DNA from: Candidatus Omnitrophota bacterium
Lineage (GTDB): Bacteria > Omnitrophota > Gorgyraeia > JAFGHF01
Reading direction: 5' to 3'
Length of the DNA: 64,000 bases
Assembly (NCBI GenBank): GCA_020341815.1
Contig: CP070837.1
Coordinates: 8,034-72,033, forward strand
Position numbers and translations under genes: made by a program. Each line of letters starts with the position of its first letter. Position 1 is the stretch's first letter. Below the pieces are notes generated by a model. It did not search any database. It was not told where the DNA came from and saw only the letters and a list, made by a program, of their open reading frames with translations. This document shows positions 12,335 through 47,026 of this stretch, in pieces.

Positions 12335-12571
12335 GATGGCGTCCCCGGCACGATGCCTTCAATTCTGATAGATTATATCTTCCGTGGATACGCATTGTTT
12401 GCTCCCCGTTATTATACCAGAAAACGGCTGTCTGTAAAGGGCTATTTTGGCCTGCTTCTTTCCCGGATATACGACTATGCCCGCAACAAATGTCCTGATA
12501 AACTCCTTCTTTCTTTCCGGCTCTCCATAGCCTAATATACCCTTGAAATCATCTAAATAAGACAACATCTT
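12335..12571. repeat. 237-bp direct repeat copy 1 (att core gatggcgtccccgg plus recombinase 3' fragment)
   Basis: About 96% identical to 15744-15980. First 14 nt identical to the 3' end of tRNA-Arg at 26032-26045. Confidence 0.9.
12359..12568 (-). pseudogene. C-terminal 69-codon remnant of a large serine recombinase
   Basis: Translation MLSYLDDFKGILGYGEPERKKEFIRTFVAGIVVYPGKKQAKIALYRQPFSG... matches the last 69 aa of the recombinase at 15768-17405 with about 5 substitutions. Confidence 0.85.
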
Positions 12572-12598
12572 ATAAATAAAGAAGTTACAACGGAAAAC

Positions 12599-15433
12599 CT
12601 ATTCCTCGTAAAATATAACTTTTAATCGTATTCGATTTAAATCAATACCGCCAACATTTTCAGGCACCTGCCGGGTCATCGGACTACTGGTGTTAGCTTG
12701 CTGTGGGATTATAGGACTGCTGGGAGCTAACCCTTTTTCTTTGTCTCTTCCAGCCAATTCCATAAGCTTAGGTAATAGCTCTTTGGCTTTGAATCGGCCT
12801 AAACTTCCCTTTTTTGCTTCCTTTTCGGTAAAAATAGTGGTTATATCCGGCTCAATATCGTCAATGATTAATACTGGAACCGGATCACCGCTGTGGCTCA
12901 TTGTTGCAGTGGCGGTTGTATGATCAGCAGTAATCACAACTACTACATCATCTAATGCTTTGCTCTTTAACAAAGGACCAAAAAAGTGTTCATCAATAAG
13001 CTGAGTCACATTTACTTTTCCCTGAGCATCTCCTTTATGTCCAAATGGATCGGGACCTTTCAAATGAACGTAGAGACCGTCACTTTTTTTCAGTTGATCT
13101 TCCACTATTTGTGCAGTTTCTTTATATTCCCGAGGCAAGTCAGCTACATATCTAGGCATTTGAACTAAATTCATTCCGGCAAGTAAACCTATACCTCTTT
13201 CAACCGGCATTTGCTGTACCATTGTCCAGTTCATTCCTCCGGTTTTCTCAGAAAGCGATTTAAGAAACACATCTTTTACGCTGGGGCCGCGAAGAAGGAT
13301 TAAATTTACTGGTACACGGCCTGTTGCTCTGCGTTTTTTATTTATTTCAGAATTATCCATAATTGTGAAGATCTTTTCTACGGCCTCATTTACCAATTTA
13401 CTCAATAGCTGTGTCTTCTCTGTAGGATCTAATCTTGGTTTTACTTTTTGCACTTCATACTTGAAGCTTCCTTCAGGCAAAGATTCAGATGCGTTCTTGC
13501 TGATTTTTTTATACCGGGGGCTTGCATTGGTAACGTCAACGTCCTCAAGAGTATTAAATTTAACTGTAGGAATCCTTATGATTATTACTCCTCGATATTC
13601 TTTAGTAGCGTAAACATAAGCTTTTGCGTTGGAATAAGAAGTTAATTCAAGATTATTATTGATTTCAGCAGCGATTTCTTCAGCCTCTTCTTGAGTTAAA
13701 TCTTTTTGTGCCCGAGGATCTTCGATTTTCAGTAATTCACCTTCCTTATGTCCTGTTCCAAAGTTTAGGCGAAATACAGCATCACCCTCTTGAACATCAG
13801 CGTCAATACCTAAAGCTTCAATTATTCCTCTTCCTGGATAGTCTATATCAGGATCGTAATTCAACATAGCCATCACTGAAGGGTCTGATTCTGGAGCAAA
13901 TCCAGGTTTGATTGGGTCCATCTGCCCCATAGCTCCCTGTTGCACTAACCGAGTTAGATTAGGTAAATTTGCATATTCCAAAGGAGTTTTGCCTCCGAAT
14001 TCTTTAATTCCATATTCTCCGTCACTTACCCCGTCTAAAACAAAATAAACAATCTTTTTCTTTTGGACAAAGCTTTGGTCTTTCACGGGTGAACTCAAAT
14101 TTTCTAATTCTTCTACGCTGTCATAATTAAACCTCTCCGGATTCACGGCGAAACGACTATACGCAAGTGTAATTTCCTCATGTGAAGCCAGACTGGAAAC
14201 TGGGCTCAGTTGCATACCTTCTAGTCCAATGCCTGTTTCATCTGTGATTATCTTCGCATACCATTGTTTACCAAAGGGATCGGCTGCTGTATTAGCAGGG
14301 CTTGATATTGTCTCTACCTTTTTGAATTTAGTACCAGCGAGTATCCCCCCTGAAAAATAATGCTTCTTGGCCATATCAAATTGATAGGGGTCGTATTCCT
14401 GCTGGTAAAAGGAATATTCGCCTTCCTTGTAGGATTTGACATAGGAATCGAAGAAGTCTCTTTTGTTCCAGGGGGTTCTGGAATGAAGCCCGCTGAGGCG
14501 GCCTTGATTGATGTGGTAGTCATACATGGTGCCCTTGCCCCAGTATTTCTGCTTGAAATATTCGGCTAAGATAAGAGAGTAGTATACCTCTCTGATGGGG
14601 GCATAACGCTTTGAATAGTTGACATCGTGCTCTATGACAGGGACGATTACTTCCTTCATTGCAGAGATGGCACAATTTTGAAGGAGCTTCTCCTGTGGGC
14701 TTTGAGTTGAGGTAAGCAGAAGGCCTGCATTGTGTTGTTCTAGGTATTCTGCCTCCAGGCAGACCTTAAGGCTGGCGCTGATAATGTTGACTCTGTCGGT
14801 TCCTCTTTCCTGTAAGATGGCCTCATTAGGCACAATCCAGAGACGGGATAAAGGAAGCGTCTTGAGGTTACTTATGCCGTTTTCTGTAAGGTTTTGCCTT
14901 AATTTGGCCCAGTATCTCTGGCCTATGGGGGTACGGGGATCGGTAAAGCGGGCAGCGTCTTTTTTAAGTTTGAGGTCGGTCTCCAGAAGGACCTTCCCCA
15001 TATCGGTAGCGGTAAGCCGGGGGCTGGCAATCTTATCCGGCTGGACAGGGTTAAGGTTGACCCAGAAGTCTTCCGAAGGTAAGACAAGGCCTAAGAAGAA
15101 GTAGTTGATTAAATCTCTGGCCTTTTGTCGTAATTGTAGGGACAGGGCTGGGCCCTGTCCATTATTGCCCTCATCCAGAACAAAGTCAAAGTAGTTTGAC
15201 TTAGACTGAGGGTTGATGATAAGGCTCCTTAGGACAGGTGGATAGTATTTATCGGTTCTTGCTTCTGAATTGGCAAGAGAGACGGATTTATCCGCAGAAT
15301 AGCTTGATGAGTCCTTGTTCCTTAGGCTGGCACAGAGTAATAAGACGCTAAAGGCTATAAAGAGTACTCCGATTATGCTACAGAGCCATATCCAGAATCT
15401 GTTTTCTTTTACGTTATGTCTTTTCTTTTTCAT
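12599..15433 (-). CDS. membrane-anchored fusion protein: novel roughly 460-aa N-terminal extracytoplasmic domain plus C-terminal ApgM-like cofactor-independent phosphoglycerate mutase / metalloenzyme (alkaline phosphatase superfamily) domain
   Basis: One TM (FWIWLCSIIGVLFIAFSVLLL). C-terminal half has IVYFVLDGVSDG...GGKTPLEYANLPNLTRL...DPSVMAMLNYDP...RLNFGTGHKEG...ITADHTTATATMSHSGDPVP, the ApgM/PF01676 pattern. Start set at M24 (ATG 15433) behind an AGGAG RBS. Confidence 0.65.
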   Translation of the reverse strand: MKKKRHNVKENRFWIWLCSIIGVLFIAFSVLLLCASLRNKDSSSYSADKSVSLANSEARTDKYYPPVLRSLIINPQSKSNYFDFVLDEGNNGQGPALSLQLRQKARDLINYFFLGLVLPSEDFWVNLNPVQPDKIASPRLTATDMGKVLLETDLKLKKDAARFTDPRTPIGQRYWAKLRQNLTENGISNLKTLPLSRLWIVPNEAILQERGTDRVNIISASLKVCLEAEYLEQHNAGLLLTSTQSPQEKLLQNCAISAMKEVIVPVIEHDVNYSKRYAPIREVYYSLILAEYFKQKYWGKGTMYDYHINQGRLSGLHSRTPWNKRDFFDSYVKSYKEGEYSFYQQEYDPYQFDMAKKHYFSGGILAGTKFKKVETISSPANTAADPFGKQWYAKIITDETGIGLEGMQLSPVSSLASHEEITLAYSRFAVNPERFNYDSVEELENLSSPVKDQSFVQKKKIVYFVLDGVSDGEYGIKEFGGKTPLEYANLPNLTRLVQQGAMGQMDPIKPGFAPESDPSVMAMLNYDPDIDYPGRGIIEALGIDADVQEGDAVFRLNFGTGHKEGELLKIEDPRAQKDLTQEEAEEIAAEINNNLELTSYSNAKAYVYATKEYRGVIIIRIPTVKFNTLEDVDVTNASPRYKKISKNASESLPEGSFKYEVQKVKPRLDPTEKTQLLSKLVNEAVEKIFTIMDNSEINKKRRATGRVPVNLILLRGPSVKDVFLKSLSEKTGGMNWTMVQQMPVERGIGLLAGMNLVQMPRYVADLPREYKETAQIVEDQLKKSDGLYVHLKGPDPFGHKGDAQGKVNVTQLIDEHFFGPLLKSKALDDVVVVITADHTTATATMSHSGDPVPVLIIDDIEPDITTIFTEKEAKKGSLGRFKAKELLPKLMELAGRDKEKGLAPSSPIIPQQANTSSPMTRQVPENVGGIDLNRIRLKVIFYEE

Positions 15434-15661
15434 CAAGTCTTCTCCTTTTAAGAATTTTCCATACGCGCTTAAATAAAAAAGCCGGTAAAGTCTATAGTTC
15501 ATCTATAAACTTCGCCAGCCCCTCTCTTAAGTTGCAAAATAATTCGCATACTCCCTATTCCTATTGAGTAATTATAATAGCACAATAAGAGACAAAAATA
15601 AAGATTAATTATTATTTAGCTAATACTTTACTCCAATGATATATGATGGTGGGGCGTAAAA

Positions 15662-15695
15662 TAAAAAGGCGGGACATTTTTGTCCCGCCTTTTTA
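15662..15695. terminator. bidirectional rho-independent terminator
   Basis: AAAAAGGCGGGACATTTTTGTCCCGCCTTTTT: 8-bp GC stem flanked by A-run and T-run. Confidence 0.7.
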
Positions 15696-15743
15696 GAATC
15701 CGTAACCTCTTATAAATATTTATGTTACAAGAGTATGCGAATT

Positions 15744-15980
15744 GATGGCGTCCCCGGCACGATGCCTTCAATTCTGATAGATTATATCTTCCGTGGATAC
15801 GCATTGTTTACTCCCCGCTATTATACCAGAAAACGGCTGTCTGTAAAGGGCTATTTTGGCCTGCCTCTTCTCTGGATATACGACTATGCCCGCAACAAAT
15901 GTCCTGACAAACTCCTTCTTCCTCTCCGGCTCTCCATAGCCTAATATACCCTTGAAATCATCTAAATAAGACAACATCTT
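15744..15980. repeat. 237-bp direct repeat copy 2 (att core plus intact recombinase 3' end)
   Basis: See copy 1. Preceded by cgaatt, matching the cgaatc flank of the tRNA-Arg 3' end. Confidence 0.9.
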
Positions 15981-17405
15981 CCCTACCGCCTTATCTGCAT
16001 GGCCGTTATGGACCTTTGTTGTAAGACGGCCTTTCTCCTGATATAACTGCTGCCTTTGAAACACATATTTATTGATGATATTTACAGCGCTATCAAGCTC
16101 TATGCCCTTCTCAATGGCCTTTTTCCAGTTTTCTATCTTTAAGGATACCTCTTTTATCTCCTGATCTAACTCGCAGAGCCTCGTATCTGACCTATTTTCC
16201 GCAATTTTGACTATTTTAAGCAGTTCTTCTTTTAATTCCTTCCGCCAGGCAGAATTGTCTATCTTATTCTGTATGTAGCTTATAACAAACTCCTCAAGCT
16301 TATCTGCATCTATATCCCATCTAATACAGGCATTATTGCCATACATATTATAGCCGCCGCATCGATACCTTCTGGCTACTCTGTCTTTTCTTTTATAGCG
16401 GCTGCCCTGGAAATTAGAGCCGCACTTGCCGCATTTCATTATTCCGGTCAAAAGATAATTACTTCCCGGCCTTGTCCCGCAAGACAAGAACCTTCCGCCT
16501 ACAAAGGCCTGTCTTGTCCTGGCCTGAATCAATTCCCAAAGTTCCATGGAAATTATCGGCTGATGAGAGTTTTCTACGACAACCCACTTATCTTTAGGGT
16601 TATATTTGTGCTTGCCGTTTCGTTTATGTATATTTTCCCGGTTATACACTAAGGTTCCAATATAAACATCATTATGCAATATCCGCCAAAGGGATGATTT
16701 TGTCCACTTTTTGCCTCTTGGAGGCGCATAAGGACTTTGGTTAAGATATTCTACAATAGAGCGCACGGATAACCCCTGCTTGGCGAACATTACAAATATA
16801 GTCTTAATAACTTTAGCCTGCTGTTTATTTACGACAAGCTTTATTTTCTGGCCCTTTATGCCCTTTTCTTTGCCTTCCGGCAGAACCTCGCCTATTTTTC
16901 CGCCTTCAACAAGAGCTCTATTATAGCCGTAAGGGGGCCTCCCGCCCATCCAAAAGCCCTGTTTCGCATTATATATCTTACCTCTTAGCGTCTGCCGCCT
17001 GATATTCTTTAGATATTCTGAGGCCTCTGCGCTTTTCACAAAGTTGGTTATTGAAGTTCCTATACTGTCTTCTTTAAAACCTTCCGAGACAAAAACGACT
17101 TTCTTATCTGCTCTTTCAACTTCTACTTCCCAATAGACAGCTTCTTTGGGATTAGTGAACCTGCCCCATCTGGAGATATCATATACAAGTACATATTGAA
17201 AATCATCCTTTAATTTACAGCATTCTATCATTTTGCGAAACTGCGGGCGGCCTTCCACATTTTCGCCGCAGGCCTCTTCCGCAAAAAACTCTATCACTTT
17301 AATAGAATGCTGCTTTGCAAACAGCAATATCTTCTCTTTCTGCTGTTCTAAAGATGTCTCCTGTAAGTCAGTCGATTTTCTCAAGTAGGCAATGGCTTGC
17401 TTCAT
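15768..17405 (-). CDS. large serine recombinase (resolvase N-domain, recombinase domain, zinc ribbon, coiled coil)
   Basis: YLRKSTDLQ catalytic Ser motif, DISRWGR, GGRPPYGY, CGKCGSNF...RYRCGG zinc ribbon; 545 aa. Confidence 0.85.
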   Translation of the reverse strand: MKQAIAYLRKSTDLQETSLEQQKEKILLFAKQHSIKVIEFFAEEACGENVEGRPQFRKMIECCKLKDDFQYVLVYDISRWGRFTNPKEAVYWEVEVERADKKVVFVSEGFKEDSIGTSITNFVKSAEASEYLKNIRRQTLRGKIYNAKQGFWMGGRPPYGYNRALVEGGKIGEVLPEGKEKGIKGQKIKLVVNKQQAKVIKTIFVMFAKQGLSVRSIVEYLNQSPYAPPRGKKWTKSSLWRILHNDVYIGTLVYNRENIHKRNGKHKYNPKDKWVVVENSHQPIISMELWELIQARTRQAFVGGRFLSCGTRPGSNYLLTGIMKCGKCGSNFQGSRYKRKDRVARRYRCGGYNMYGNNACIRWDIDADKLEEFVISYIQNKIDNSAWRKELKEELLKIVKIAENRSDTRLCELDQEIKEVSLKIENWKKAIEKGIELDSAVNIINKYVFQRQQLYQEKGRLTTKVHNGHADKAVGKMLSYLDDFKGILGYGEPERKKEFVRTFVAGIVVYPEKRQAKIALYRQPFSGIIAGSKQCVSTEDIIYQN

Positions 17406-17545
17406 TAAGCTGTAACTTTCTCCCTTTCAATGACTACTCTTTTATCCTTCTGCTCTTCAAAATACTTGCTGAACATACACTCAATAATAAACTGGTTGAT
17501 TCTTTTTCCTGCTTCCGGCGGCTTCTTCTTTTCCTTGCTCTCCAT
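17405..17545 (-). CDS. 46-aa ORF overlapping the recombinase start (TAATG), possible recombination directionality / regulatory factor
   Basis: MESKEKKKPPEAGKRINQFIIECMFSKYFEEQKDKRVVIEREKVTA, AGGAG RBS upstream; below the ORF-track cutoff. Confidence 0.3.
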   Translation of the reverse strand: MESKEKKKPPEAGKRINQFIIECMFSKYFEEQKDKRVVIEREKVTA

Positions 17546-17562
17546 ACCAGGCTCTCCTTCCT

Positions 17563-17769
17563 TTACCTAACCAGATCCTTGCAACTAACGCCAAGGGCTT
17601 TGGCAAGCTCAAAAAGAGTTGTCAAATACATATTGACCCTGCCGTGTTCCACCCGGCTTATATATCCCCGGCTCAACTTGGCCTTTTTAGCCAGCTGCGC
17701 CTGTGTCAGCTTCTTCTCTGAGCGGTAATAGCGTATATTGTCCCCTATCTTCCTTCTCAGCTCTGACAT
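17563..17769 (-). CDS. XRE-family HTH transcriptional regulator
   Basis: LTQAQLAKKAKLSRGYISRVEHG HTH motif; start trimmed to M18. Confidence 0.75.
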   Translation of the reverse strand: MSELRRKIGDNIRYYRSEKKLTQAQLAKKAKLSRGYISRVEHGRVNMYLTTLFELAKALGVSCKDLVR

Positions 17770-17826
17770 AATACCTTTCCTCCTTTCATCAGTAATTACA
17801 TATGTAATGTTTGAGCACAAAAAAAT

Positions 17827-18021
17827 TTACCAGGTAATTCCCAGCGCCTTTATCTCCTTTATAGTCCTCTCCTGTTTTGGCACTGCCATCCCTAATTCCC
17901 ACCGCGCAATTGTAGTAACAGTTACAACTAATTTTCGCGCAAGTTCTTGTTGCGTCAAATCGCGTTCCTCTCTGTATCTTTTTATTGCCCGGCTAAATTT
18001 TTGCTTATCAATGGTCGTCAT
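17827..18021 (-). CDS. XRE-family HTH transcriptional regulator
   Basis: LTQQELARKLVVTVTTIARWELG HTH motif; 64 aa. Confidence 0.75.
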   Translation of the reverse strand: MTTIDKQKFSRAIKRYREERDLTQQELARKLVVTVTTIARWELGMAVPKQERTIKEIKALGITW

Positions 18022-18109
18022 CTTCTTCCTTTAATTCTTAAAGATAGCTTATCATATGTAATTACCCTTGTCAAGTGGTTTTTTTAAAGAATTTCTTTGG
18101 GAGAAAGCT

Positions 18110-18811
18110 TTATTTACGAGGACAAATAGAGCATGGAGATCTATTTGAAATACACGTATAAACGTTTATGCCATCAACTCTATGAAAATCTGCATCAATA
18201 ACAATAAAGTCATTTATGCCAGCTTCTTGCGCAATAGCAATATTAAGAGCATCTGCTGGTAAGATATTATACAGTTCTACAATATTGCACATCTTTTCGG
18301 TGACAGTCTCTGTTGTCTTCGTTTGCAGATGATCTGCTTCTAAAACGGCAATTGGAATAGCCATAATCCTCTCATAATAATATTTTAGTAAATGGTAATA
18401 CTTAGCAATTAATTCGTGATGATCTTTTAATAATTCGGATAATGGATTTTTTCTTCCTTTATCTTTATATTCTTGAATATGCCTATCATAAGGGGTAGTA
18501 AAGAAATCTACAGATTCTACTTTATTTTTCAAAATATAAAAAAAGAACTCATTCAAAACATAATTATCTGTAAATAAACAAATTTCTTCAGATTTCGCTT
18601 TTGTTTCTAAAAGAGTCAAAAAATCACTGCAAATAATATTTATTCTGGAAAAAATTTTCTCTGGAACAGGAAAAAAAGAATTGATGAGAAAAGAAGTATC
18701 TATAAAAAAGAAATCTGGAAAATTAAATCCAGATTTTTTAGTATTATTAAATTTATATATCGTCGCTGGCATAGAAGTTTTTTTTGTTATCTTTTTCAAA
18801 ATATTTCTCAT
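18110..18811 (-). CDS. long PIN-like nuclease domain protein (about 220 aa), third gene of a coupled operon
   Basis: FFFIDTSFLIN (first Asp) ... TDNYVLNEF ... DALNIAIAQEAGINDFIVIDADF (distal Asp pair), with a roughly 90-aa insertion between. Alternative start M14 at 18772. Confidence 0.5.
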   Translation of the reverse strand: MRNILKKITKKTSMPATIYKFNNTKKSGFNFPDFFFIDTSFLINSFFPVPEKIFSRINIICSDFLTLLETKAKSEEICLFTDNYVLNEFFFYILKNKVESVDFFTTPYDRHIQEYKDKGRKNPLSELLKDHHELIAKYYHLLKYYYERIMAIPIAVLEADHLQTKTTETVTEKMCNIVELYNILPADALNIAIAQEAGINDFIVIDADFHRVDGINVYTCISNRSPCSICPRK

Positions 18812-19100
18812 TATCTAAGGTAACTTGATCGGGGAAGGTAATATTCGAAATCTCACCTTTCTTTGAAGCCAATATTTTAGCTTTTGCCAAAGCTAATTTA
18901 TAGAATGATTTTAATTTATTCTTTTTTTCTTCTTTTAATTCGCTAAAAATTAAATTATCTGTTACTTTCTTTAAATAGTGCTCCAGGATTCTTTTCTTAT
19001 TAGTAAACCGCATTTCCTCTTGGCTAATCAAGACAACATCTTTATCATCCTCGATATGCCAAATTTCTAGGCCGATATCTTTCTTGAGTATTTTATGCAT
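18753..19100 (-). CDS. 115-aa hypothetical protein, middle gene of the operon
   Basis: Start at the ATG embedded in AATGCATAA (overlaps the stop of the upstream gene); the track's longer N-terminus would overlap the upstream ORF by 178 nt and is rejected. Confidence 0.45.
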   Translation of the reverse strand: MHKILKKDIGLEIWHIEDDKDVVLISQEEMRFTNKKRILEHYLKKVTDNLIFSELKEEKKNKLKSFYKLALAKAKILASKKGEISNITFPDQVTLDNEKYFEKDNKKNFYASDDI

Positions 19101-19701
19101 TTTTATTTTCTTTTTGTTTGATAAAAGCTGCCGAAAAATTCTTTGATTTTTTAATGGTATCCTTAAGATATCCAAAGCTATAACTATTAATGTGCTCCGA
19201 AAGAACTTGAAGAAAGATATCATCTGCCTTACAACGATGACATTTCTGAATATCCAAAATAATAGAATCAACTTCTCTATGCTCTGGAAAAGAAATTCTC
19301 ATACCATTCAAAATTACTTTTCCAAAGCCACTTCTTTTTTCTTCAAAAACCACTGGCAGAGCAGGATCAGTTTCAAAATCTTTCCTTGAATAATGAAATG
19401 TCATTCTTGAAAAAATAGTTATTTTTTCTGTAAAGTTTTTCTCGAAAAAGTCTGAAGTTTTTTTGAAATTCTCTATATCTTTTTTTTCGAAGCTAGGATA
19501 ATCAGGAATAGTAACGGTAAGTTGATAAGCAGTAGTAGAATTTGGTTTTTGTTCAGGCAATTCAATCAGACTAAAAAGTTCTTTCTGTACATGGATAAAG
19601 TTAGAGTATTCTTTATAAAGTCTTTTTTCTATAGCCAATTCAGTAACTAACTTGGCATAATAGAAATGCCTATTTTTTATTAAATTTATAAACTCTTGCA
19701 T
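19093..19701 (-). CDS. 202-aa hypothetical protein, first gene of the operon
   Basis: No recognisable motif; 146-bp AT-rich promoter region upstream. Confidence 0.45.
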   Translation of the reverse strand: MQEFINLIKNRHFYYAKLVTELAIEKRLYKEYSNFIHVQKELFSLIELPEQKPNSTTAYQLTVTIPDYPSFEKKDIENFKKTSDFFEKNFTEKITIFSRMTFHYSRKDFETDPALPVVFEEKRSGFGKVILNGMRISFPEHREVDSIILDIQKCHRCKADDIFLQVLSEHINSYSFGYLKDTIKKSKNFSAAFIKQKENKNA

Positions 19702-19846
19702 AGTTTGTGATATCTAATTGTAATATTTATTAACAAAAGTTATTTTAGCACAAATTTCGATAAAAGTCAATTATATTTATAATTGCCCAAATTGTCCAGA
19801 AACATAACTTATTTCCTCTTAAGCAGTTGCAACAATTCACCAATTC

Positions 19847-20638
19847 TCAAAAACCAACTTTGTATTTTTTCAGAAATAAATCTAATTCTTGTTTCTTTCC
19901 TAGTTCAAATAAATCATTATATACAGATAGGAATGTATGCATGTATTCAATTGTTAAAATCATATTTGTTATTATATTGCAATATGATGGGTCAGAAGAA
20001 AAATATGTATATTCTTCAGTACGCTTCACTTCTTGGATGATTCCAAGCATTGAGGGGTGTGAAATTAAGCAGCACATACGATATACAAGATTATATTCAT
20101 TTGACATACCAACTACTTCGGCCATTCTTTCAACGGATTTCCCCGACCAAGTAGAAAGACCATTTTTAACTTTAAAATTTACTTTATATTCTTTAACTTT
20201 AGCCAAAATTTCGGGTTCTTTTGATAGAATTGATTTCTGTAACTTTTTGCTCTCAACTTGTTTATTTGTTTTCCAATATTTCAATTGCTTTCTCATCAGT
20301 AGCCATTTGTATTCTTCAAATCTTTGAGCAAGCTCATTAGGATTTTTATTCAAAATTATATATTTTGTAGTAATCAAATTTTCTAATAGTGATCTCATAA
20401 GTATTAGGGCGCTCATACCATGACCTTCTTGGCAGAGCAAATCAATAGATTTATAATGTCTAATTGATGTATTAAATAGATATAGAAAGGTGTTCTTATA
20501 TTTTGGTATTCTGCTTGGTCGAAAGTTATTTGATGATTGATTAAAGACGATAAGTAATGTGTCTATTAAATGATATAAATTATCGGCGCATTCAAATAGT
20601 TCTTTATTTTTTTTAAGATTTTCATGTTTAAAAGCCAT
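19847..20638 (-). CDS. hypothetical protein with HEPN-like Rx6H motif (RMCCLISHPS), candidate abortive-infection-type RNase
   Basis: 263 aa; the R-x6-H-x-S motif lies in a predicted helical C-terminal region. Confidence 0.35.
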   Translation of the reverse strand: MAFKHENLKKNKELFECADNLYHLIDTLLIVFNQSSNNFRPSRIPKYKNTFLYLFNTSIRHYKSIDLLCQEGHGMSALILMRSLLENLITTKYIILNKNPNELAQRFEEYKWLLMRKQLKYWKTNKQVESKKLQKSILSKEPEILAKVKEYKVNFKVKNGLSTWSGKSVERMAEVVGMSNEYNLVYRMCCLISHPSMLGIIQEVKRTEEYTYFSSDPSYCNIITNMILTIEYMHTFLSVYNDLFELGKKQELDLFLKKYKVGF

Positions 20639-20818
20639 ATTTTTATATTCACTTCATATAATGCTTGAGATAATCTGTCTTTTTCGCATAGCTAAAAAAG
20701 TTAGATTGAGCGATTTGATAAAGGTTTAATTTATAAATATTTCACATAAAATCAGGTGACAATACCTATTTAGTAATTAAGTATTGTCCCTCGATTTGTG
20801 TCATTTTCGCTCTCTTGT

Positions 20819-21157
20819 TTAAGGTAAAGCTACTGGTACGCTAAACTTAATTCGGCTTACTGAGGAATTCTCTTTGCGGGATTCACCTTGACTGCCAAGT
20901 CCGACTGATCCAACAAAAACACCAATGCCACCTTTTGTGCCCTGTCGTTCCACTGCAGTTATTGCTACATCAAATTCAACTATAGTTACAGTTTTATGGC
21001 CGCTCATTTTCATCAGGCCTTGTTTCACAATATCTTTTGTATCCCCCCAAACACCTGGATTAATGTCGGCACCGGATGTGGATTCAGATTCCTTAGCATT
21101 TTTAATGCCTGTAATTAACTCTTCTAAGGTTTTTGACACAAAGTCACTTAAATTCAT
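20819..21157 (-). CDS. small protein resembling the Trypco2 (trypsin-co-occurring domain 2) fold
   Basis: N-terminal amphipathic helix (LEELITGIKNA) followed by Gly-rich beta hairpins VEFDVAITAVERQGTKGGIGVFVGSVGLGSQGES...IKFSVPV. Only gene in the window with a perfect AGGAGG SD at -7. Confidence 0.35.
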   Translation of the reverse strand: MNLSDFVSKTLEELITGIKNAKESESTSGADINPGVWGDTKDIVKQGLMKMSGHKTVTIVEFDVAITAVERQGTKGGIGVFVGSVGLGSQGESRKENSSVSRIKFSVPVALP

Positions 21158-21289
21158 ATGGATCCTCCTATTGAAATCTGGAAATCTGAAATCTAAAAAT
21201 CCGTATGCTTTAGATTACGGGAACATAATATTTATTTATTAGATTTTAAAGCTAATTAAGTGTTGATCCCTAGAATTTTCCGATTGGTT

Positions 21290-22381
21290 TTATTTTCCAG
21301 ATTTTGTTCGGTTATCTTGTTTGCACAACATTTGACAATTTTCTGCAACAGTCTTTCCACCTTCATGCCATGGCTTTATATGATCAGCTTCCATTCCTTC
21401 TATCTCAAAGCGTTTCTTGCATTTTACGCATTTACCTTTTTGCCTTTCATATGCTTCTCTCTTTTGTTTATCTGTGAATGCTCTAATATTCAAAAATTTC
21501 TCATTTCGGGTTAAAATATATGGATAAATTCCGGATTTCTTCGTTACTTCGTCATCTAGCATTAATTCTTTGATTTCAGTTTCCAATTTATTAGAGTTCA
21601 GTCTCTTCTTTTTGAACTCGTTATGCAGCCCGCCCCATTGCACACCACTCATTTCTCGGCGATAATTTATAAAAGTCTTTCGCACCCACTCAATCACATC
21701 TTGAAAGTATTGCCATAATTCTTCAGCATTCTGACTATGCTGATGTTTGGCCATATAATCTTCTATCTTGCCATTGTTAATCCACGAAAGTGCAGTTTCT
21801 AAATACTCTTGTCGTATTGGCGATCCACTTACTAATTGTCCCCCATCATTTGCTAGAAGGTATGCTGCACAATTTGATTTGCTAAATTTCAATTTAGCGT
21901 CGCTCAACCATGGCCCAGTATAAACTGCATTGCGTATTTCTTGATCAGTCAATTTTACACCGGCAATGTTGATAATCCTAAACCAGTCTAACCGCTCTTT
22001 GTCTGTGCCTTCGCAGAAGTAAATCATTAGTTCATAATCCAAAATTTTATCCTGCTCCTCTTTGGTTAGATTATGAAAAAAGCAGTTATTCAGTGAAAAA
22101 TCGTTATAAACATATTGTCCTATACTAATAGTGCGCTGTTGGCCGTCCAGCATTTCGTAGCCGCCATCTTCTCTGATCATCCAATACATCACATTCAGCG
22201 GAAAGCTGTTTTTGATAGTTTCTATCACGGCATTACGTTGCTTTTCCTTGTATACAAACTCACGCTGATATTTTGGACGAATATTCAATTTGCCGTCATA
22301 AGCCGTCACGCCTTCTTCAGCACTATCTTTATAATCGGCTATTACCTTACGAATTGGAATTTTATGTAGATCGATTTTCAT
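21290..22381 (-). CDS. DUF262 (ParB/Srx-like, DGQQR) domain protein with C-terminal HNH endonuclease, GmrSD/SspE-like
   Basis: MLDGQQRTISI motif; C-terminal CVKCKK...EADHIKPWHEGGKTVAENCQMLCKQDN HNH motif. Confidence 0.75.
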   Translation of the reverse strand: MKIDLHKIPIRKVIADYKDSAEEGVTAYDGKLNIRPKYQREFVYKEKQRNAVIETIKNSFPLNVMYWMIREDGGYEMLDGQQRTISIGQYVYNDFSLNNCFFHNLTKEEQDKILDYELMIYFCEGTDKERLDWFRIINIAGVKLTDQEIRNAVYTGPWLSDAKLKFSKSNCAAYLLANDGGQLVSGSPIRQEYLETALSWINNGKIEDYMAKHQHSQNAEELWQYFQDVIEWVRKTFINYRREMSGVQWGGLHNEFKKKRLNSNKLETEIKELMLDDEVTKKSGIYPYILTRNEKFLNIRAFTDKQKREAYERQKGKCVKCKKRFEIEGMEADHIKPWHEGGKTVAENCQMLCKQDNRTKSGK

Positions 22382-22382
22382 A

Positions 22383-23435
22383 TTATTTTTTCACTTTCTT
22401 GTTTTTAATTAAAATACGAGCATATATTTCTTGACCATTTATCGTAAATCTCTTTCCATAATTCGGATTATCTTTGACATACCTATCAATACCAATAATT
22501 TCAAACTGCTCGGGGTTATATTTATCAACAAATGTAATTGGAACACCCATTACACCTTTATAATCCATTGGGATATCAATGTATCTATTTATATTAATAG
22601 CATTGTAGCTATCATATTTAGGATAATCCTCTGGGCTATATTTTTTATATAAAGTTAATTCTTCATGACGTTTTGCAGTATCCAAATTTGTAAACCACAG
22701 AATACGACCCATACTTAAATATTTCACACCGTTTTCAATCTTCTTCCTTGATTCTGTTGGTATGTCATAATCCATGGGTACCTGGAACCACTTCGTGCCA
22801 CCGTTATCATAACCAAGCCACAATTTATTTTCTTTGATATAGCCGAAAATTTCTTTATAAGAAATAGCGTTCTGATCACCAAGAATCAAAAACTTCTTGT
22901 TATATTCCATTAGCTGTGCAACATATTCCCGAAACAGAGAAAAAGGCGGATTGGTTACAACTATGTCGGCTTGCTTGAGTAATTCTATACACTCATCGCT
23001 GCGGAAATCGCCATCACCTTCAAGGGGAGATGAAGTATTAACATCATGTCTTAGCAACCACTCTACATCTGTAATATCAACAGCGCCGTCGGCATTAACA
23101 TCTGAAATCTCCCTTATTTCAATTTTAAATGGCTCTTTGCCTTTCGGCTTTAACCCTTCCATTTCAAACAACAACAGCTGACCGCCCACAATTGGCGACT
23201 TAATATAGCTTGTGGTAATAAGCTTCTTTAGTTTTAGTGGTTTAAAATTAGCAGCGAAATATTTAAAAAAATTACTCTCAAAGGGATCATCGCAATTACA
23301 GTAAACAACCTTGCCACGAAATTGTTCTTTGTAGTGTCTTAGCTCTTTTTCAATATCAACGAGCTGGGTATAAAACTCATCTTTTTTTGCTTTGCTTGCC
23401 TTATGTAAGTTTTTATTTAAAGATTTAGTTCCCAT
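22383..23435 (-). CDS. N6-adenine DNA methyltransferase (FYT motif X-like ... NPPF motif IV) with embedded EF-hand/dockerin-like Ca-binding loop
   Basis: DEFYTQLV near the N-terminus, IVVTNPPFSLF catalytic motif, DVNADGAVDITD 12-residue DxNxDGxxDxxD loop; stop overlaps the start of the DUF262-HNH gene. Confidence 0.6.
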   Translation of the reverse strand: MGTKSLNKNLHKASKAKKDEFYTQLVDIEKELRHYKEQFRGKVVYCNCDDPFESNFFKYFAANFKPLKLKKLITTSYIKSPIVGGQLLLFEMEGLKPKGKEPFKIEIREISDVNADGAVDITDVEWLLRHDVNTSSPLEGDGDFRSDECIELLKQADIVVTNPPFSLFREYVAQLMEYNKKFLILGDQNAISYKEIFGYIKENKLWLGYDNGGTKWFQVPMDYDIPTESRKKIENGVKYLSMGRILWFTNLDTAKRHEELTLYKKYSPEDYPKYDSYNAININRYIDIPMDYKGVMGVPITFVDKYNPEQFEIIGIDRYVKDNPNYGKRFTINGQEIYARILIKNKKVKK

Positions 23436-23659
23436 ATTTTTATTAGGATTTGGTCCTAATTACCTAATGTTACTTTCTTCCTACTAATTCATCCAAGCTA
23501 ACCCCAAAAGCATCGGCAATCTTAACCATGGTTTGAATTGTGGGTTGCTTTGCGATACTTTGTTCGATTATGTATTTTACTTGCCTTTGTCAAGAAATTA
23601 GTATTGCGTCCCCTGATCTGCATGATTCTGCGATTCTGTAGAGGAATATCCCGTTTATC

Positions 23660-24973
23660 TTATTGCTCAATCTTACAACCCTCCTTTGACACTCTTAACC
23701 ATCCATATTTCTTTGTAAAGATATCGAGTACATCATTATTTGTAATTTCTCCCTGTTCTTTCAGATAGAGCAGATTTAATAGATCAATTGTCCTCATAAT
23801 TAACACCTTCTTTTCAACTGCTAACTTTACTTGCTCTGAATTTACTTCGCGCAATTTGTCTGCAATACTATTTGCTGATTTTATAAATGAATTCACAATT
23901 AATATAGTTGGAAATTTAGACGATTTCCCTCTGCGACCTCTATGTGAGTCTGCTTGATAAACATTAGGACTTTTAATATTTTCGTTTACTCCCTTTATTT
24001 CCAAAAGAGCTATCTCTTTATTATCTTTGTCAAGTATTGCTCTGTCTTCTATGTATTCGTCTTTTTTAGTATCTATGTTAAAGCTAAACCCTTCTTTCAA
24101 TACATCTACCACACTATCAACTAATGGATTATCACTATAACAAAGGCATCTTTTATATTTTTTATACACCTCTTTTCCTGCAAGTAGTGCCTCTATCTTA
24201 TTCTGTAATGCTACTTCTTTTTTCAAGATAGCTTCTTCTTCTTGAAACTTATAGTCGTCTACCCAAGATGGTATTTCTTGAACTAATTTCTTTGAAGTAG
24301 CCACTAAAGATGAAACGAGTTCCTTAAAAAAATGATCTATTTCGTCTATTGATGGTATCCGACACGGGATAATATAATGGCTGTCAAACAAAATGAAGCC
24401 CGCTAGAGTACGATAGCCTGCATCACAAATCTTTTTTACATACGGTTCAAAGAATGAATTATAGGAAAATTTTACCTTTGCTATGCCATAGTCTTTCAAG
24501 AATTGCAGAAATTCCCCTTTATAAGTCTTTGTAATTCCACAATCCCCACCTAAAGGATACCTATAGAAACCATCATAATTTAGAAGCAGTTTGCATAAGC
24601 CAGTCTGTTTCAGATTTAAGTCATCCTGACCTCTTATATAATCAACAAATTCTGAATGGATGAGGAAGCAAATAAATCCTCCTCTCTCGCGTAATTGTAA
24701 AGTTTGATTTCTTCTTTTTACTAATTCATCTCTCCGATATCGCAAATATTTTTGTGCATAGAGGCCATCTGTTGATTCAACACTTTCAAATGTAGACTGG
24801 AATAAAACTACGCCATTATAATCTTGAAACCTTTTAGCTGTTTCGAAAGGTTCAAAATCTATTTCAAAGTTTTTGGTTTTGATGGTTGACTGCGGAATAC
24901 TTAAGTCGAAACGCTCAATACCATATACAAGAATACGTGGTAAGGTAGAACCTTGAATTTGTTTAGCATCCAT
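23660..24973 (-). CDS. hypothetical protein with C-terminal PD-(D/E)xK nuclease-like core, candidate restriction endonuclease
   Basis: ...EDRAILDKDNKEIALLEIKG (D ... ExK spacing typical of the restriction-endonuclease fold); N-terminal 300 aa unassigned. Confidence 0.4.
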   Translation of the reverse strand: MDAKQIQGSTLPRILVYGIERFDLSIPQSTIKTKNFEIDFEPFETAKRFQDYNGVVLFQSTFESVESTDGLYAQKYLRYRRDELVKRRNQTLQLRERGGFICFLIHSEFVDYIRGQDDLNLKQTGLCKLLLNYDGFYRYPLGGDCGITKTYKGEFLQFLKDYGIAKVKFSYNSFFEPYVKKICDAGYRTLAGFILFDSHYIIPCRIPSIDEIDHFFKELVSSLVATSKKLVQEIPSWVDDYKFQEEEAILKKEVALQNKIEALLAGKEVYKKYKRCLCYSDNPLVDSVVDVLKEGFSFNIDTKKDEYIEDRAILDKDNKEIALLEIKGVNENIKSPNVYQADSHRGRRGKSSKFPTILIVNSFIKSANSIADKLREVNSEQVKLAVEKKVLIMRTIDLLNLLYLKEQGEITNNDVLDIFTKKYGWLRVSKEGCKIEQ

Positions 24974-25094
24974 TTATTTCACCTCATCTCTATGAAAACT
25001 ACAGGAAATTCTTTGGCCAGCAAAATCACATTGACTTTTATTTTACCCCTTTTTGTTGACTATAGCAAGGTAAAAGTACTTGGACAATGGAGAG

Positions 25095-25334
25095 TCATTT
25101 GGCCTTTTTAGACCAATGAAATAGGGCTATTTTGATGGAAATTGGGATTGGTTTGCCCTTTCGGGGCCTGCAATGACGTCTGAGGCGTAAAATCCAGCCC
25201 TTTGGAAACCAGATTTCCCTGCCATCAAACTCGATTAGGATGGCTTTGGGGGTTTCTTTGATGAGAAGGGCGTTTATCCAGACATATTCCGGGGGATTTA
25301 AGGCATATTTGAGCCAAAATTTGAGGCTAAACAT
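25095..25334 (-). CDS. small hypothetical protein
   Basis: 79 aa, overlaps the upstream wHTH gene by 8 nt. Confidence 0.35.
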   Translation of the reverse strand: MFSLKFWLKYALNPPEYVWINALLIKETPKAILIEFDGREIWFPKGWILRLRRHCRPRKGKPIPISIKIALFHWSKKAK

Positions 25335-25815
25335 AGGTTTTTCTTGCTTTTCTCAGGTTTCTAAGGCCTTCTTTTAGCCAATCTGGGGCAATATAAGGCT
25401 TTTCGCAAAGGGGTTTTGGCTGTTCAGTAAATTCGGATCTCCTTTTTCTGATCTTCTTAGTGGTAATTTCTTTATGGGCAGTGGCGCGGCGCTGCTTGAG
25501 CTCTATTCTGTCAACCGGAAGATCCTGGAGCTCTACCCATATCTTTGGCTTTTTGTTCTTGTGGCCGGAAACCATCCCCTTTTCAGTAGCAATCAGGCCC
25601 ATATCTTTGAGCTCTTGGCGTGCTTTGTATATTGTCGCATTGGCCAGGCCGGTGGCTTCTTTTAATGCTTTTGCTCCATAGCAGCTTCTGCCCTCTGCCC
25701 CACCTGCTAAGACATAAAGAATGTAGAGCTTGGCGGCTGAGGCGGACATTTCCTTTAAGAATCCTAATTCTTTAAGGTCCCTGTCTATCCAGCCAAATGG
25801 GTAAAGTGTTCTCAT
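25327..25815 (-). CDS. winged-helix DNA-binding protein (phage/plasmid replication-organiser or regulator type)
   Basis: LYILYVLAGGAEG...ATIYKARQELKDMGLI wHTH followed by a basic tail. Confidence 0.45.
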   Translation of the reverse strand: MRTLYPFGWIDRDLKELGFLKEMSASAAKLYILYVLAGGAEGRSCYGAKALKEATGLANATIYKARQELKDMGLIATEKGMVSGHKNKKPKIWVELQDLPVDRIELKQRRATAHKEITTKKIRKRRSEFTEQPKPLCEKPYIAPDWLKEGLRNLRKARKTYV

Positions 25816-25865
25816 AGTTTAAATATTCTATTTCAATATCTATTTAATACTTATATAGAGAGTTC

Positions 25866-25915
25866 AAATTTTGAACTATGCCCTGCTTAAAGCTGAGTTC
25901 AAAAATTGAACTATG
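25866..25915. promoter_or_regulatory. two copies of the palindromic operator GTTCAAAnnTTTGAAC-TATGC
   Basis: agttcaaattttgaactatgc and agttcaaaaattgaactatgc 24 bp apart, upstream of the wHTH gene and next to the attL side. Confidence 0.4.
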
Positions 25916-26033
25916 CTTTAAAATAAAAAAAGGGAAGCTACCCTGCACCGTATGGTACAGAACAACTTCCCTTAATTTTGGTAACCTTTTATAACTGTTT
26001 AAGTTATAAAAGTGTCCGAATCGATGGCGTCCC

Positions 26034-26304
26034 CGGTGTGATTCGAACACACGACCCTCTGCTTAGCATCCAGCATCAAGTTTCCCTGACCACTCCGAAT
26101 ACTCGGAGCTTGCTGGCCGGACTTTCTCTTGGGCGTCTCAGCCCCACCGCGTAAAGTCTCTACACTTCCCCAAAACTTTTAGGGTAGCTCGGTATTACCC
26201 AACTTGGGCGTCTACCGAATTAGCGGTGTCCACTTCATAAGTTTATTTCCCTATGAAGGCTCCTTATTGAAGGCAGATGCTCTATCCAGCTGAGCTACGG
26301 GGAC
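26034..26304 (-). tRNA. tRNA-Arg(UCU) interrupted by a 194-nt intron in the anticodon loop (exons 26270-26304 and 26034-26075)
   Basis: 5' half GTCCCCGTAGCTCAGCTGGATAGAGCATCTGCCTT and 3' half CTAAGCAGAGGGTCGTGTGTTCGAATCACACCGGGGACGCCA. They pair perfectly in acceptor (GTCCCCG/CGGGGAC) and anticodon (TCTGC/GCAGA) stems. The D-arm is that of E. coli tRNA-Arg. Confidence 0.75.
26076..26269 (-). ncRNA. group I (IC3-like) self-splicing intron candidate inside tRNA-Arg
   Basis: Contains GAAGUGUAGAGACUUUACGCGGUGGGG, closely resembling the P7/J6-7 core GAAGGUGUAGAGACUAGACGGCACCC of the Azoarcus tRNA-Ile intron as I remember it. 5' exon ends in U, intron ends in G. Possible P1 CUU/GAG. Confidence 0.55.
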
Positions 26305-26308: not shown

Positions 26309-26383
26309 TCGGGACGGGCAGATTCGAACTGCCGACCTTCTGCTCCCAAAGCAGACGCGCTAGCCAAACTGCGCTACGTCCCG
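26309..26383 (-). tRNA. tRNA-Pro(UGG), CCA not encoded
   Basis: Acceptor CGGGACG/CGTCCCG, anticodon loop TTTGGGA, T-loop TTCGAAT; 4 nt upstream of tRNA-Arg. Confidence 0.8.
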
Positions 26384-26480
26384 TTCCAAAATACTGCCAA
26401 GCTTTGTGCTTTGGCAAGACTAATGCCATATAGCACTAGTCTACTTTTAAAAATCAACCATTGAAGTATTTTGGAACGGG
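26380..26480. mobile_element. MITE-like TIR repeat, family 1, copy A
   Basis: TIRs CCCGTTCCAAAATAC / GTATTTTGGAACGGG around a central palindrome ctaatgccatatagcactag; abuts the tRNA-Pro 5' end. Confidence 0.7.
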
Positions 26481-32900: not shown

Positions 32901-32984
32901 TAACAATCAATCTTTAAAGTGAACTAGTGCCATACGGCATTAGCTTGCTATTAGTTTTGACTGTTGGAGTATTTTAGTTCGGGG
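32882..32984. mobile_element. MITE-like TIR repeat, family 1, copy B (inverted orientation)
   Basis: CCCCGAACCAAAATACT ... AGTATTTTAGTTCGGGG; sits between convergent ppm1 and rdgB and supplies both stop codons. Confidence 0.7.
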
Positions 32985-46921: not shown

Positions 46922-47026
46922 CCCCGTACCAAAAATACTTCAACAGTCAAAACTAAAAGCAAACTAATGCTATATGGCACTAGTTCACTTTTAAAAATCA
47001 ACCGTTGTTAGTATTTTGGTACGGGG
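46922..47026. mobile_element. MITE-like TIR repeat, family 1, copy C1
   Basis: CCCCGTACCAAAAATACT...AGTATTTTGGTACGGGG; between the GT39 gene and the rnpB 3' end. Confidence 0.7.

Follow-up and report, generated by a model that had tools for sequence, protein, structure and literature searches.

The group I introns that interrupt tRNA genes of bacteria span 184-894 bp in a recent survey (Nakagawa et al. 2026, mSystems; PMC13011429), and the accessible entries of its Table S5 already include subgroup IC3 introns listed as 'Arg (TCT) 34/35'. Williams 2020 (bioRxiv 10.1101/2020.01.27.920355), who distinguished 21 tRNA/site classes, probably covered introns at this site of tRNA-Arg(UCU) as well. 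Two other described introns are close in kind: the Azoarcus tRNA-Ile intron, which is 205 nt long (PMC13168695), and the tRNA-Leu(UAA) intron, which likewise belongs to subgroup IC3. We analysed a 64-kb stretch (hereafter the window) of an Omnitrophota genome of ~1.55 Mb and identified what is very probably a 203-nt IC3-like group I intron between U34 and C35 of tRNA-Arg(UCU), with tandem islands at the end of the 3' exon (Table 1).

The window intron shares with the Arg(UCU) 34/35 entries accessible in Table S5 the host tRNA and the insertion site (U34|C35), a 5' motif (..aggagcc), a P2 hairpin with a GAA..AA loop, the sequence gtgga, the core elements ccgtagagact / gtgtagagact and aagaNaNagtcc, and a terminal g. 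Its homology to these IC3-labelled entries suggests that it, too, belongs to subgroup IC3. It carries no ORF and is shorter than the Bacillota examples of the class among the same entries (260-338 nt; PMC13011429). The initial annotation had ranked it among the smallest group I introns known and had implied that it was new. Neither idea holds against the published size range and the Arg (TCT) 34/35 entries accessible in the same survey (PMC13011429), the Azoarcus intron (PMC13168695) and the shortest homologue in our own set (191 nt). Introns of this class have been published before and occur widely, and the window copy is neither a size record nor unusual in architecture. It extends to Omnitrophota a class that the accessible entries catalogue in Bacillota, Bacteroidota and Campylobacterota, and it leaves the knowledge of group I introns unchanged.

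Table 1. Features at and around the split tRNA-Arg(UCU) gene, in window coordinates
Feature	Position	Strand	Evidence
Promoter-like TTGCCA-18-TATTTT, 5 nt upstream of tRNA-Pro	26388..26417	-	Consensus scan only; count not above shuffles
tRNA-Pro(UGG), 4 nt upstream of split tRNA-Arg	26309..26383	-	ARAGORN, Rfam
5' exon of tRNA-Arg(UCU)	26270..26304	-	Sequence; ARAGORN (intron mode; joined exons)
Group I intron (probable), 203 nt, IC3-like	26067..26269	-	Family covariance model built without the window; covariation in 87 sequences
Predicted internal guide sequence GAG, intron nt 8-10	26260..26262	-	GGAG invariant in 87/87
P2 hairpin, intron nt 12-20 with 29-37, loop GAAAUAAA	26233..26258	-	Covariation
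P3 5' strand CACCGC, intron nt 42-47	26223..26228	-	Partner GCGGUG at 26145-26150; 5/6 pairs covary
P4-P5-P6 domain	26164..26218	-	Covariation in family alignment
P7 5' strand G-A(bulge)-GACU, intron nt 110-115, predicted guanosine-binding helix	26155..26160	-	AGAGACU invariant; GAGACT fixed in the scan pattern
P8 hairpin, intron nt 126-129 with 136-139	26131..26144	-	99% paired; 4/4 pairs covary
J8/7 AAGAGAA, then P7 3' strand AGUCC (classical 'S' element)	26119..26130	-	AGUCC invariant in 87/87, not imposed
P9 domain	26070..26116	-	Covariation in family alignment
3' exon of tRNA-Arg(UCU)	26025..26066	-	Sequence; ARAGORN
att core copy 1, CCGGGGACGCCATC	26023..26036	-	Repeat search, three-way alignment; spans acceptor 3' strand, discriminator and CCA plus 2 nt
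Terminator-like hairpin, 20 pairs and T tail	25930..25973	-	Consensus scan only
Island A, ~10.3 kb	15758..26022		Pfam; GC
Large serine recombinase, 545 aa (Resolvase, Recombinase, Zn_ribbon_recom)	15768..17405	-	Pfam, ORF list
att core copy 2, between islands A and B	15744..15757	-	Repeat search, three-way alignment
Island B, ~3.4 kb, degenerate	12349..15743		Repeat families D1 and D9, alignment, Pfam
att core copy 3, distal end of island B, followed by chromosomal flank	12335..12348	-	Repeat search, three-way alignment

The 5' exon corresponds to tRNA positions 1-34 (acceptor 5' strand, D arm, anticodon-stem 5' strand, C32, U33 and U34). The 3' exon supplies C35, U36, A37 and A38, followed by the anticodon-stem 3' strand, variable loop, T arm, acceptor 3' strand, discriminator G and encoded CCA. 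The gene thus runs from 26304 to 26025; the initial annotation had set its boundary at 26034 and so dropped the last 9 nt. Between the two exons, the acceptor strands (GUCCCCG/CGGGGAC) and the anticodon-stem strands (UCUGC/GCAGA) pair perfectly. This perfect pairing of two tRNA halves had been recognised from the start, but the spacing between them is 203 nt (26269-26067, a length that ARAGORN also returned in intron mode), not 194 nt. Joining the exons after U34 restores the loop CUUCUAA with the anticodon UCU, as had been proposed, and ARAGORN called the joined sequence a canonical 77-nt tRNA-Arg(tct), which places the insertion at the 34/35 site of the published class. The U at the 3' end of the 5' exon and the G at the 3' end of the intron, both named in the initial annotation, are present in the sequence.

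Among 17 long ORFs of the window, AGA and AGG made up 20% and 24% of arginine codons, respectively, and a UCU tRNA is therefore needed. Standard annotation misses the gene, so that the genome would seem to have no AGA-reading tRNA even though AGA and AGG together account for 44% of arginine codons in these ORFs; once the intron is recognised, the decoding set is complete again. The split gene is probably co-transcribed with the tRNA-Pro(UGG) gene upstream. The terminator-like hairpin lies ~50 nt downstream of the tRNA-Arg 3' end, within the proximal end of island A.

A pattern scan of contigs from one genome per species yielded 87 split tRNA-Arg(UCU) genes from more than ten taxonomic groups. 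GAGACT and the exon motifs were built into the scan pattern, so an unvarying P7 5' strand carries no independent weight. The terminal G, found in 87/87 introns, and the GGAG and AGUCC elements, invariant across the 87 introns, were not imposed by the pattern. In a MAFFT alignment of the 87 sequences, the proposed pairs were formed in 87.1% of cells, compared with 34-44% when the partners were slid by 1-3 columns. The covariation score was 0.546, against ~0.1, and none of 500 shuffles reached it. P2, P3, P4, P6, P8, P9 and P9b each contained pairs altered on both sides. A covariance model trained on the 86 homologues, with the window intron left out (R1), produced a single match in the 64 kb, at 26063-26272 on the minus strand (186.5 bits, E=1.4e-58). 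The match covered the full length of the model (positions 1-215 of 215), and no non-canonical pair was flagged. Identity between the window intron and the retrieved homologues ranged from 41% to 77%, with the closest relatives at 72-77%. Judging by the scan, Omnitrophota commonly carry Arg(UCU) 34/35 introns. By eye, two Chitinophagaceae members of the set (L053 and L060) resemble a 213-nt Bacteroidota entry in the accessible part of the published table.

The intron starts with CAAUAAGGAG and ends with GCUGGAUG, with the terminal (omega) G at 26067. Drawn by hand, the window sequence accommodates the whole set of core helices: P1, P2-P9, the P3/P7 pseudoknot and a bulged A in P7. Core fold and family model both support the proposal of a group I intron within the tRNA-Arg(UCU) anticodon loop, and its position lies between U34 and C35. 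In the predicted fold, P1 is a 3-bp helix of GAG with exon C32-U33-U34, with a wobble between U(-1) and G8. A minimal P10 could form between the invariant G7 (26263) and C(+1) of the 3' exon. P2 was paired in 91% of cells of the family alignment, with two-sided changes in 9/9 pairs. P4 (intron nt 52-57 with 76-81) was 97% paired, with 5/6 pairs covarying, and P6/P6a (nt 82-84 with 104-106 and 86-92 with 96-102) also covaried. Following the P7 5' strand come J7/3 and the P3 3' strand (26145-26150). The P7 pairing joins G110-A111(bulge)-G112-A113-C114-U115 with A147-G148-U149-C150-C151. In P9, the closing stem CCAGC/GCUGG (nt 154-158 with 196-200) was 98% paired and covarying, as was P9b (nt 181-185 with 190-194), which was 97% paired and is capped by a GAAA (GNRA) tetraloop. 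Pairing was lower in P5 (nt 61-64 with 70-73; 67%, weakly aligned by MAFFT) and P9a (nt 162-167 with 172-177; 52% in the MAFFT alignment), whose length varies across the family; both values probably reflect length variation among the members. The R/S-type elements of group I introns (..AGAGACU.. / AAGAnAnAGUCC) were found in the window intron. The P7-region element noticed at the outset, GUGUAGAGACU at 26164-26154 on the minus strand, matches the conserved ...gtgtagagact... of published subgroup IC3 tRNA introns.

From homology with the Azoarcus and Anabaena tRNA introns, we infer self-splicing chemistry for this intron. The split tRNA-Arg would be transcribed, probably together with the upstream tRNA-Pro, and the intron would fold into its P3-P9 core, with the guide GAG and exon C32-U33-U34 forming the 3-bp P1, in which a U.G wobble holds the U of the splice site. 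P7 would bind an exogenous guanosine, which would attack after U34, and the terminal G would then take its place in the G-binding site. Attack by the 3'-OH of U34 after the terminal G would join the exons, giving a mature tRNA predicted to read AGA (and AGG). During these steps the exons would be kept together by the anticodon and acceptor stems; Zaug, McEvoy and Cech (1993, cited in PMC3984707) reportedly showed that the tRNA-Leu(UAA) intron depends on the anticodon stem to hold its exons.

Like the window intron, the Azoarcus tRNA-Ile intron is a compact, ORF-less element of ~205 nt in a tRNA anticodon loop (PMC13168695). It is inserted after position 36 of tRNA-Ile2, whereas the window intron lies at 34/35 of tRNA-Arg. 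The window intron further differs in its 8-nt P2 loop, its 4-bp P8 and a P9 domain arranged as a three-way junction (closing stem, P9a and P9b). The Azoarcus ribozyme has a 3-bp P1 with a U.G wobble, formed by CAU/GUG where the window intron has CUU/GAG. Compared element by element, the two introns have further features in common: P7 contains GUAGAGACU with a bulged A, and P9 contains a GNRA tetraloop. Neither has a P5abc-type extension. The tRNA-Leu(UAA) intron has the same insertion point as the window intron, between U34 and the next anticodon base (CUU/a...g/AAAA; Williams 2020). It occupies a different host tRNA, and the published examples in the accessible entries are typically longer (211-259 nt).

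Standard tools did not report the locus. Across the whole window, ARAGORN in default mode did not call the split tRNA-Arg, and Rfam at its gathering score called neither the split tRNA nor the intron. Rfam Intron_gpI (RF00028), which the initial annotation had put forward as a check, did not match the window intron even in 551-nt and 216-nt slices searched at E<=10, where only chance-level matches such as YrlA and PyrR208 appeared. We did not take this as a refutation because Intron_gpI does match two relatives in the family alignment, L026 (60.8 bits) and L012 (50.2 bits; gathering threshold, 50 bits), and because the family model is decisive. Indeed, 16 of the 18 family loci tested had no gathering-level match to Intron_gpI, so that most members of the class, as judged from these loci, fall under the Rfam group I threshold. 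The miss reflects low sensitivity of Intron_gpI to this intron subtype; none of the 12 Intron_gpI seeds cited by Williams 2020 (bioRxiv 10.1101/2020.01.27.920355) is bacterial. ARAGORN in intron mode found the split gene and its 203-nt intron, with the junction at 33/34 and the label tRNA-Ser(gct). This call was ruled out: with it, the intron would end in U, and the variable loop is short, at 5 nt that of a class I tRNA and not of tRNA-Ser. Only the 34/35 junction yields both U(-1) and a terminal G in the intron.

Of the other ways to read the insert, a decayed pseudo-tRNA carrying a non-splicing intron or remnant, with tRNA-Arg(UCU) supplied by another copy elsewhere, fares best and is still improbable. 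The Rfam miss could be read in this way, and the window, within which ARAGORN by default called no other tRNA-Arg, covers 64 kb of the ~1.55-Mb genome. By contrast, every family-invariant column is intact in the window intron (the columns were computed with the window included), R1, built without it, aligns it end to end, and the exons are perfect, with all stems paired and CCA encoded. The closest relatives retain the same helices through compensatory changes at 72-77% identity, which indicates purifying selection on the fold. A non-ribozyme insertion (a bulge-helix-bulge intron spliced by proteins, a small element of group II descent or a miniature transposable element) might be entertained on the grounds that exons alone cannot fix the boundaries, as the ARAGORN junction one nt upstream illustrates, but all three are so unlikely that we excluded them, given the full group I core with covariation, U.G wobble and terminal G, the two family members at the Rfam group I gathering score, the class I variable loop and, for a group II origin, a length of 203 nt that is far too short and the lack of any match to group II or other Rfam families.

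The initial annotation had also taken the tRNA 3' exon for the att site of tandem islands. The islands and their site stand, but the core is confined to the last 12 nt of the exon and the 2 nt beyond it. Exact copies of the 14-nt core number three in the window, where 0.08 would be expected. The tRNA-Arg 3' end is left intact, with its CCA, beside island A; the intron lies 30 nt from the att core and forms no part of the att site. Island A encodes an EcoRI-like adenine methyltransferase, a GmrSD_N-HNH endonuclease, a DUF5677 protein, a PIN-like protein and the large serine recombinase (Pfam), whose stop codon is separated from att copy 2 by 10 nt. GC content falls to 28-38% at 18-26 kb, compared with 42-50% in the flanks. 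In island B, the proximal arm (15702-15743) is ~84% identical to 25981-26022, and the 237-nt distal end matches the 3' end of the recombinase gene in island A at 96% identity; only the last ~70 codons of that gene remain here (12359-12571). Island B also carries a 967-aa protein with PhosphMutase/Metalloenzyme domains.

These tandem serine-recombinase islands are a case of ordinary tRNA-targeted integration. The last 12 nt of the 3' exon and the next 2 nt would serve as the crossover core for an integrative element with a large serine recombinase, which would have integrated twice in tandem and regenerated the tRNA 3' end each time. At 14 nt the core is short, and its three copies might instead be duplicated remnants of the tRNA 3' end or chance repeats; we consider this highly improbable in view of the number of exact copies, the intact recombinase adjoining copy 2, the low GC content inside the island and a flank pattern as expected for tandem integration, in which copies 2 and 3 resemble each other in their left flanks (96% identity over 237 nt, corresponding to the recombinase 3' end) and copies 1 and 2 in their right flanks (~84%). 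In a tblastn search with flanking proteins of the window against all retrieved loci, we found no synteny and hence neither an empty att site nor a close relative of the locus among them. As in other tRNA-targeting islands, direct repeats of a tRNA 3' end bound the elements, a recombinase gene sits at one end, the composition is foreign, the cargo includes defence genes, and of the two related tandem elements the distal one has decayed. tRNA sites are usually used by tyrosine integrases, whereas the window islands have a large serine recombinase. The tRNA targeted here also carries an intron, which is uninvolved.

The Arg(UCU) 34/35 family may have been carried between phyla by phages, a possibility that we regard as rather unlikely. 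A 2014 review stated that the phage group I introns then known were all in protein-coding genes, and a non-exhaustive literature search returned no report of phage tRNA introns, only that statement of none known. Were phage carriage true, with the viral contigs that contain such introns genuine phages and the finding still unreported, compact tRNA introns would have a new reservoir and vector in the tRNA arrays of phages. Phage spread could then explain the window copy in an Omnitrophota genome and how a family that lacks homing endonucleases comes to be present in more than ten taxonomic groups.

In large viral contigs from IMG/VR, R1 matched intron-split tRNA genes within tRNA arrays, with up to three per array. 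ARAGORN assigned these split tRNAs to Arg-UCU, Leu-UAA and a third tRNA. At one phage locus (L093), an R1-type intron occurs in a tRNA-Leu(UAA) gene that adjoins the Arg(UCU) one.

The two halves of tRNA-Arg(UCU), separated by 203 nt, pair perfectly in the acceptor and anticodon stems, and joining them yields the anticodon loop CUUCUAA and a 77-nt tRNA that ARAGORN calls tRNA-Arg(tct). The split gene described in the initial annotation is thus real, although its intron measures 203 nt, not 194 nt, and its end lies at 26025 instead of 26034. The intron mode of ARAGORN also detected a split gene with a 203-nt intron. The junction was set one base 5' of the correct one, giving 'Ser gct'; we rejected this reading on two grounds: it leaves the intron ending in U, and the tRNA has a short variable loop. 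ARAGORN found no further tRNA-Arg within the 64-kb window. The 5' half begins 4 nt after tRNA-Pro(UGG), and a copy of a 54-nt repeat lies directly upstream of tRNA-Pro, overlapping the promoter-like site.

A complete group I core could be drawn on the intron sequence, with a minimal P10 possible between intron G7 and C(+1) of the 3' exon. Single-sequence folding gave a stability above that of shuffled versions (z = -4.5) and recovered most hairpins of the drawn structure.

Features in and around the split tRNA-Arg(UCU) gene (intron positions 1-203 correspond to 26269 to 26067)
Feature	Position	Strand	Remarks
tRNA-Pro(UGG)	26383-26309	-	ARAGORN, Rfam
Promoter-like site	5 nt upstream of tRNA-Pro	-	consensus match only
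tRNA-Arg(UCU) 5' half	26304-26270	-	GUCCCCG UA GCUC AGCUGGAUA GAGC A UCUGC CUU
tRNA-Arg(UCU) 3' half	26066-26025	-	CUAA GCAGA GGGUC GUGUG UUCGAAU CACAC CGGGGAC G CCA
Terminator-like hairpin, strong	~50 nt beyond tRNA-Arg 3' end	-	consensus match only
P1	exon CUU with G8-A9-G10		U(-1).G8 wobble
P2	intron 12-20 / 29-37
P3	intron 42-47 / 120-125
J3/4			UAAU
P4	intron 52-57 / 76-81
P5	intron 61-64 / 70-73
P6	intron 82-84 / 104-106
P6a	intron 86-92 / 96-102
J6/7			GUA
P7	G110, G112-U115 / A147-C151		A111 bulged
P8	intron 126-129 / 136-139
J8/7			AAGAGAA
P9 domain closing stem	intron 154-158 / 196-200
P9a	intron 162-167 / 172-177
P9b	intron 181-185 / 190-194		GAAA loop
Intron 3' end	A-U-G203		terminal (omega) G
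Island A	15758-26022		EcoRI-like methyltransferase, GmrSD_N-HNH endonuclease, DUF5677, PIN-like protein
Large serine recombinase gene, intact	15768-17405	-	Resolvase, Recombinase, Zn-ribbon domains (Pfam)
Island B, degenerate	12349-15743		967-aa PhosphMutase/Metalloenzyme-domain protein
Recombinase gene remnant	12359-12571		last ~70 codons only
PNPase	41031-43148	-	identical to UCB57075.1 (Candidatus Omnitrophota bacterium MAG)
RNase P RNA, bacterial class A	47081-47540	-	Rfam, 185 bits

Taking a single genome for each species, we searched for a pattern in which the Arg D-arm, C32-U33-U34, GAGACT, CUAA and the T-loop were obligatory and introns of 174-234 nt were allowed. The scan returned 87 loci from more than ten taxonomic groups, as judged by record title: Omnitrophota (the largest), Planctomycetes-labelled MAGs, Gamma- and Alphaproteobacteria, Desulfobacterota, Chitinophagaceae, Salinibacter, Bacilli and Clostridia, Acidobacteriota, Chloroflexota, Elusimicrobia, Armatimonadota (Fimbriimonas) and Patescibacteria. 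Intron lengths were 191-231 nt, within the permitted range, and all 87 introns had a terminal G and a GGAG near the 5' end, neither imposed by the pattern. In a MAFFT alignment of these introns, 87.1% of cells were paired, compared with 34-44% when partners were slid by 1-3 columns, and the covariation score was 0.546 versus ~0.1, a value reached by 0 of 500 shuffles. Double changes were numerous in P2, P3, P4, P6, P8, the P9 closing stem and P9b. P7, in which the pattern imposed GAGACT, was invariant, its un-imposed 3' strand AGUCC included, and the length-variable, poorly aligned P5 and P9a were 67% and 52% paired, respectively. A covariance model (R1) built from the 86 other sequences, leaving the window out, matched the 64-kb window exactly once, at 26063-26272(-) (186.5 bits, E=1.4e-58), at full length and without flagged non-canonical pairs. 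The covarying core and this match bear out the proposed group I intron, from whose homology we infer self-splicing. Its nearest relatives, in Omnitrophota and Planctomycetia-labelled MAGs, are only 72-77% identical.

The initial annotation would have counted the lack of a group I covariance hit against its reading, and Rfam Intron_gpI (RF00028) indeed matched nothing at the window intron, not even when a 216-nt slice was searched at E<=10. This silence is nevertheless uninformative, because two loci of the same family, L026 (60.8 bits) and L012 (50.2 bits), matched at gathering level, and because Williams 2020 (bioRxiv 10.1101/2020.01.27.920355) had already noted the problem, stating that the 12 seeds cited there for the Rfam model include no bacterial one; his own dedicated model raised the tRNA intron yield by 20%. 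Since L026 and L012 share the alignment and covarying structure of the others, they link the Arg(UCU) family with Rfam's curated model of group I introns. They were the only gathering-level matches among 18 loci, each holding an intron of this family (L012, L026, L030, L053, L043, L001, L002, L013, L004, L006, L010, L014, L041, L044, L055, L069, L079 and L003), so standard pipelines would leave most of these introns unannotated. Across 17 long ORFs that lie beyond the islands, AGA and AGG account for 20% and 24% of Arg codons, and a tRNA with a UCU anticodon is therefore required. The value of the result lies mainly in annotation: a seemingly missing tRNA is actually present.

Williams 2020 raised the number of intron-split bacterial tRNA classes from 4 to 21. 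Nakagawa et al. 2026 (PMC13011429) reported 333 tRNA group I introns in 4,934 complete genomes (184-894 bp, mean 257; 81% subgroup IC); for Bacteroidota and Campylobacterota they mention Arg(UCU) introns that carry an endonuclease. The 'Arg (TCT) 34/35' introns in their Table S5, most of them labelled IC3, include examples from Bacillota (260-338 nt) and Bacteroidota (213 and 639 nt); these have the 5' motif aggagcc, the P2 hairpin, gtgga and the core elements in common with the window intron. The intron in Azoarcus tRNA-Ile measures 205 nt (PMC13168695). From these comparisons, the window intron is a member of a published class and of ordinary size for it. The exceptional smallness first claimed for it does not hold against these lengths, and the match to 'GUGUAGAGACU', though present, is simply the P7 element conserved among tRNA introns of subgroup IC3.

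The scan pattern also found intron-split tRNA-Arg(UCU) genes on 16 IMG/VR viral contigs (loci L089-L104), all matched by R1 (121-151 bits), and several of these introns lie inside phage-like arrays of 8-18 tRNA genes (examples at L093:3400-5200 and L090:12800-13999). At locus L093, taken from a 280,913-bp contig, R1 matched three introns in neighbouring tRNAs, called by ARAGORN as Arg-UCU (205-nt intron), Leu-UAA (237-nt) and 'SeC-tca' (189-nt). A 2014 review (PMC3984707) placed every phage group I intron then known in protein-coding genes, and a non-exhaustive literature search found no later report of phage tRNA group I introns.

CCGGGGACGCCAT occurs three times in the window (26024-26036, 15745-15757 and 12336-12348; 0.08 expected). 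The core common to these copies is 14 nt (CCGGGGACGCCATC) and takes in just the final 12 nt of the tRNA-Arg 3' exon and 2 further nt. The intron, 30 nt away, takes no part in the att site. The 237 nt left of copies 2 and 3 are 96% identical and correspond to the 3' end of the large serine recombinase gene, and the ~43-nt arms right of copies 1 and 2 are ~84% identical. Because the core occurs three times with such matching flanks, two related elements appear to be integrated in tandem at the tRNA-Arg 3' end, upholding the att site and tandem islands originally proposed. The GC content of island A is 28-38%, versus 42-50% around it. A serine-recombinase homologue 29% identical to that of the window lies at L046:5535-6068 (Omnitrophota), ~2 kb downstream of that locus's own intron-split tRNA-Arg(UCU), suggesting that this tRNA may be a recurrent target of the recombinase family.

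Within 21290-23435 (-), island A encodes an EcoRI-like adenine methyltransferase (Pfam, E=1e-138). Its direct neighbour is a GmrSD_N-HNH endonuclease instead of a nuclease of the EcoRI type, and this combination is unusual in a restriction-modification module; the DUF5677 and PIN-like genes lie close by.

Compared with the Rfam consensus, the RNase P RNA has unusually long insertions: its first hairpin is extended by ~31 nt, and 97 nt are inserted where the model has 4 nt. Copies of the 54-nt repeat (26388-26441, 32892-32945, 46932-46985 and 47325-47378) contain the palindrome ACTAATGCyATATrGCAyTAGT, and the repeat may represent a small element with a mobile or regulatory role. Two of the copies share 98% identity, one inside the 97-nt insertion and the other ~100 nt past the 3' end of the RNase P RNA match. 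Three further patches (48703-48824, 55282-55444 and 60732-61171) consist of short periodic repeats (families D2, D6, D7 and D11) whose units, for example AGTCGCT / AGTATCT, measure ~7 or 14 nt; the first patch adjoins tRNA-Met at 48830-48904.
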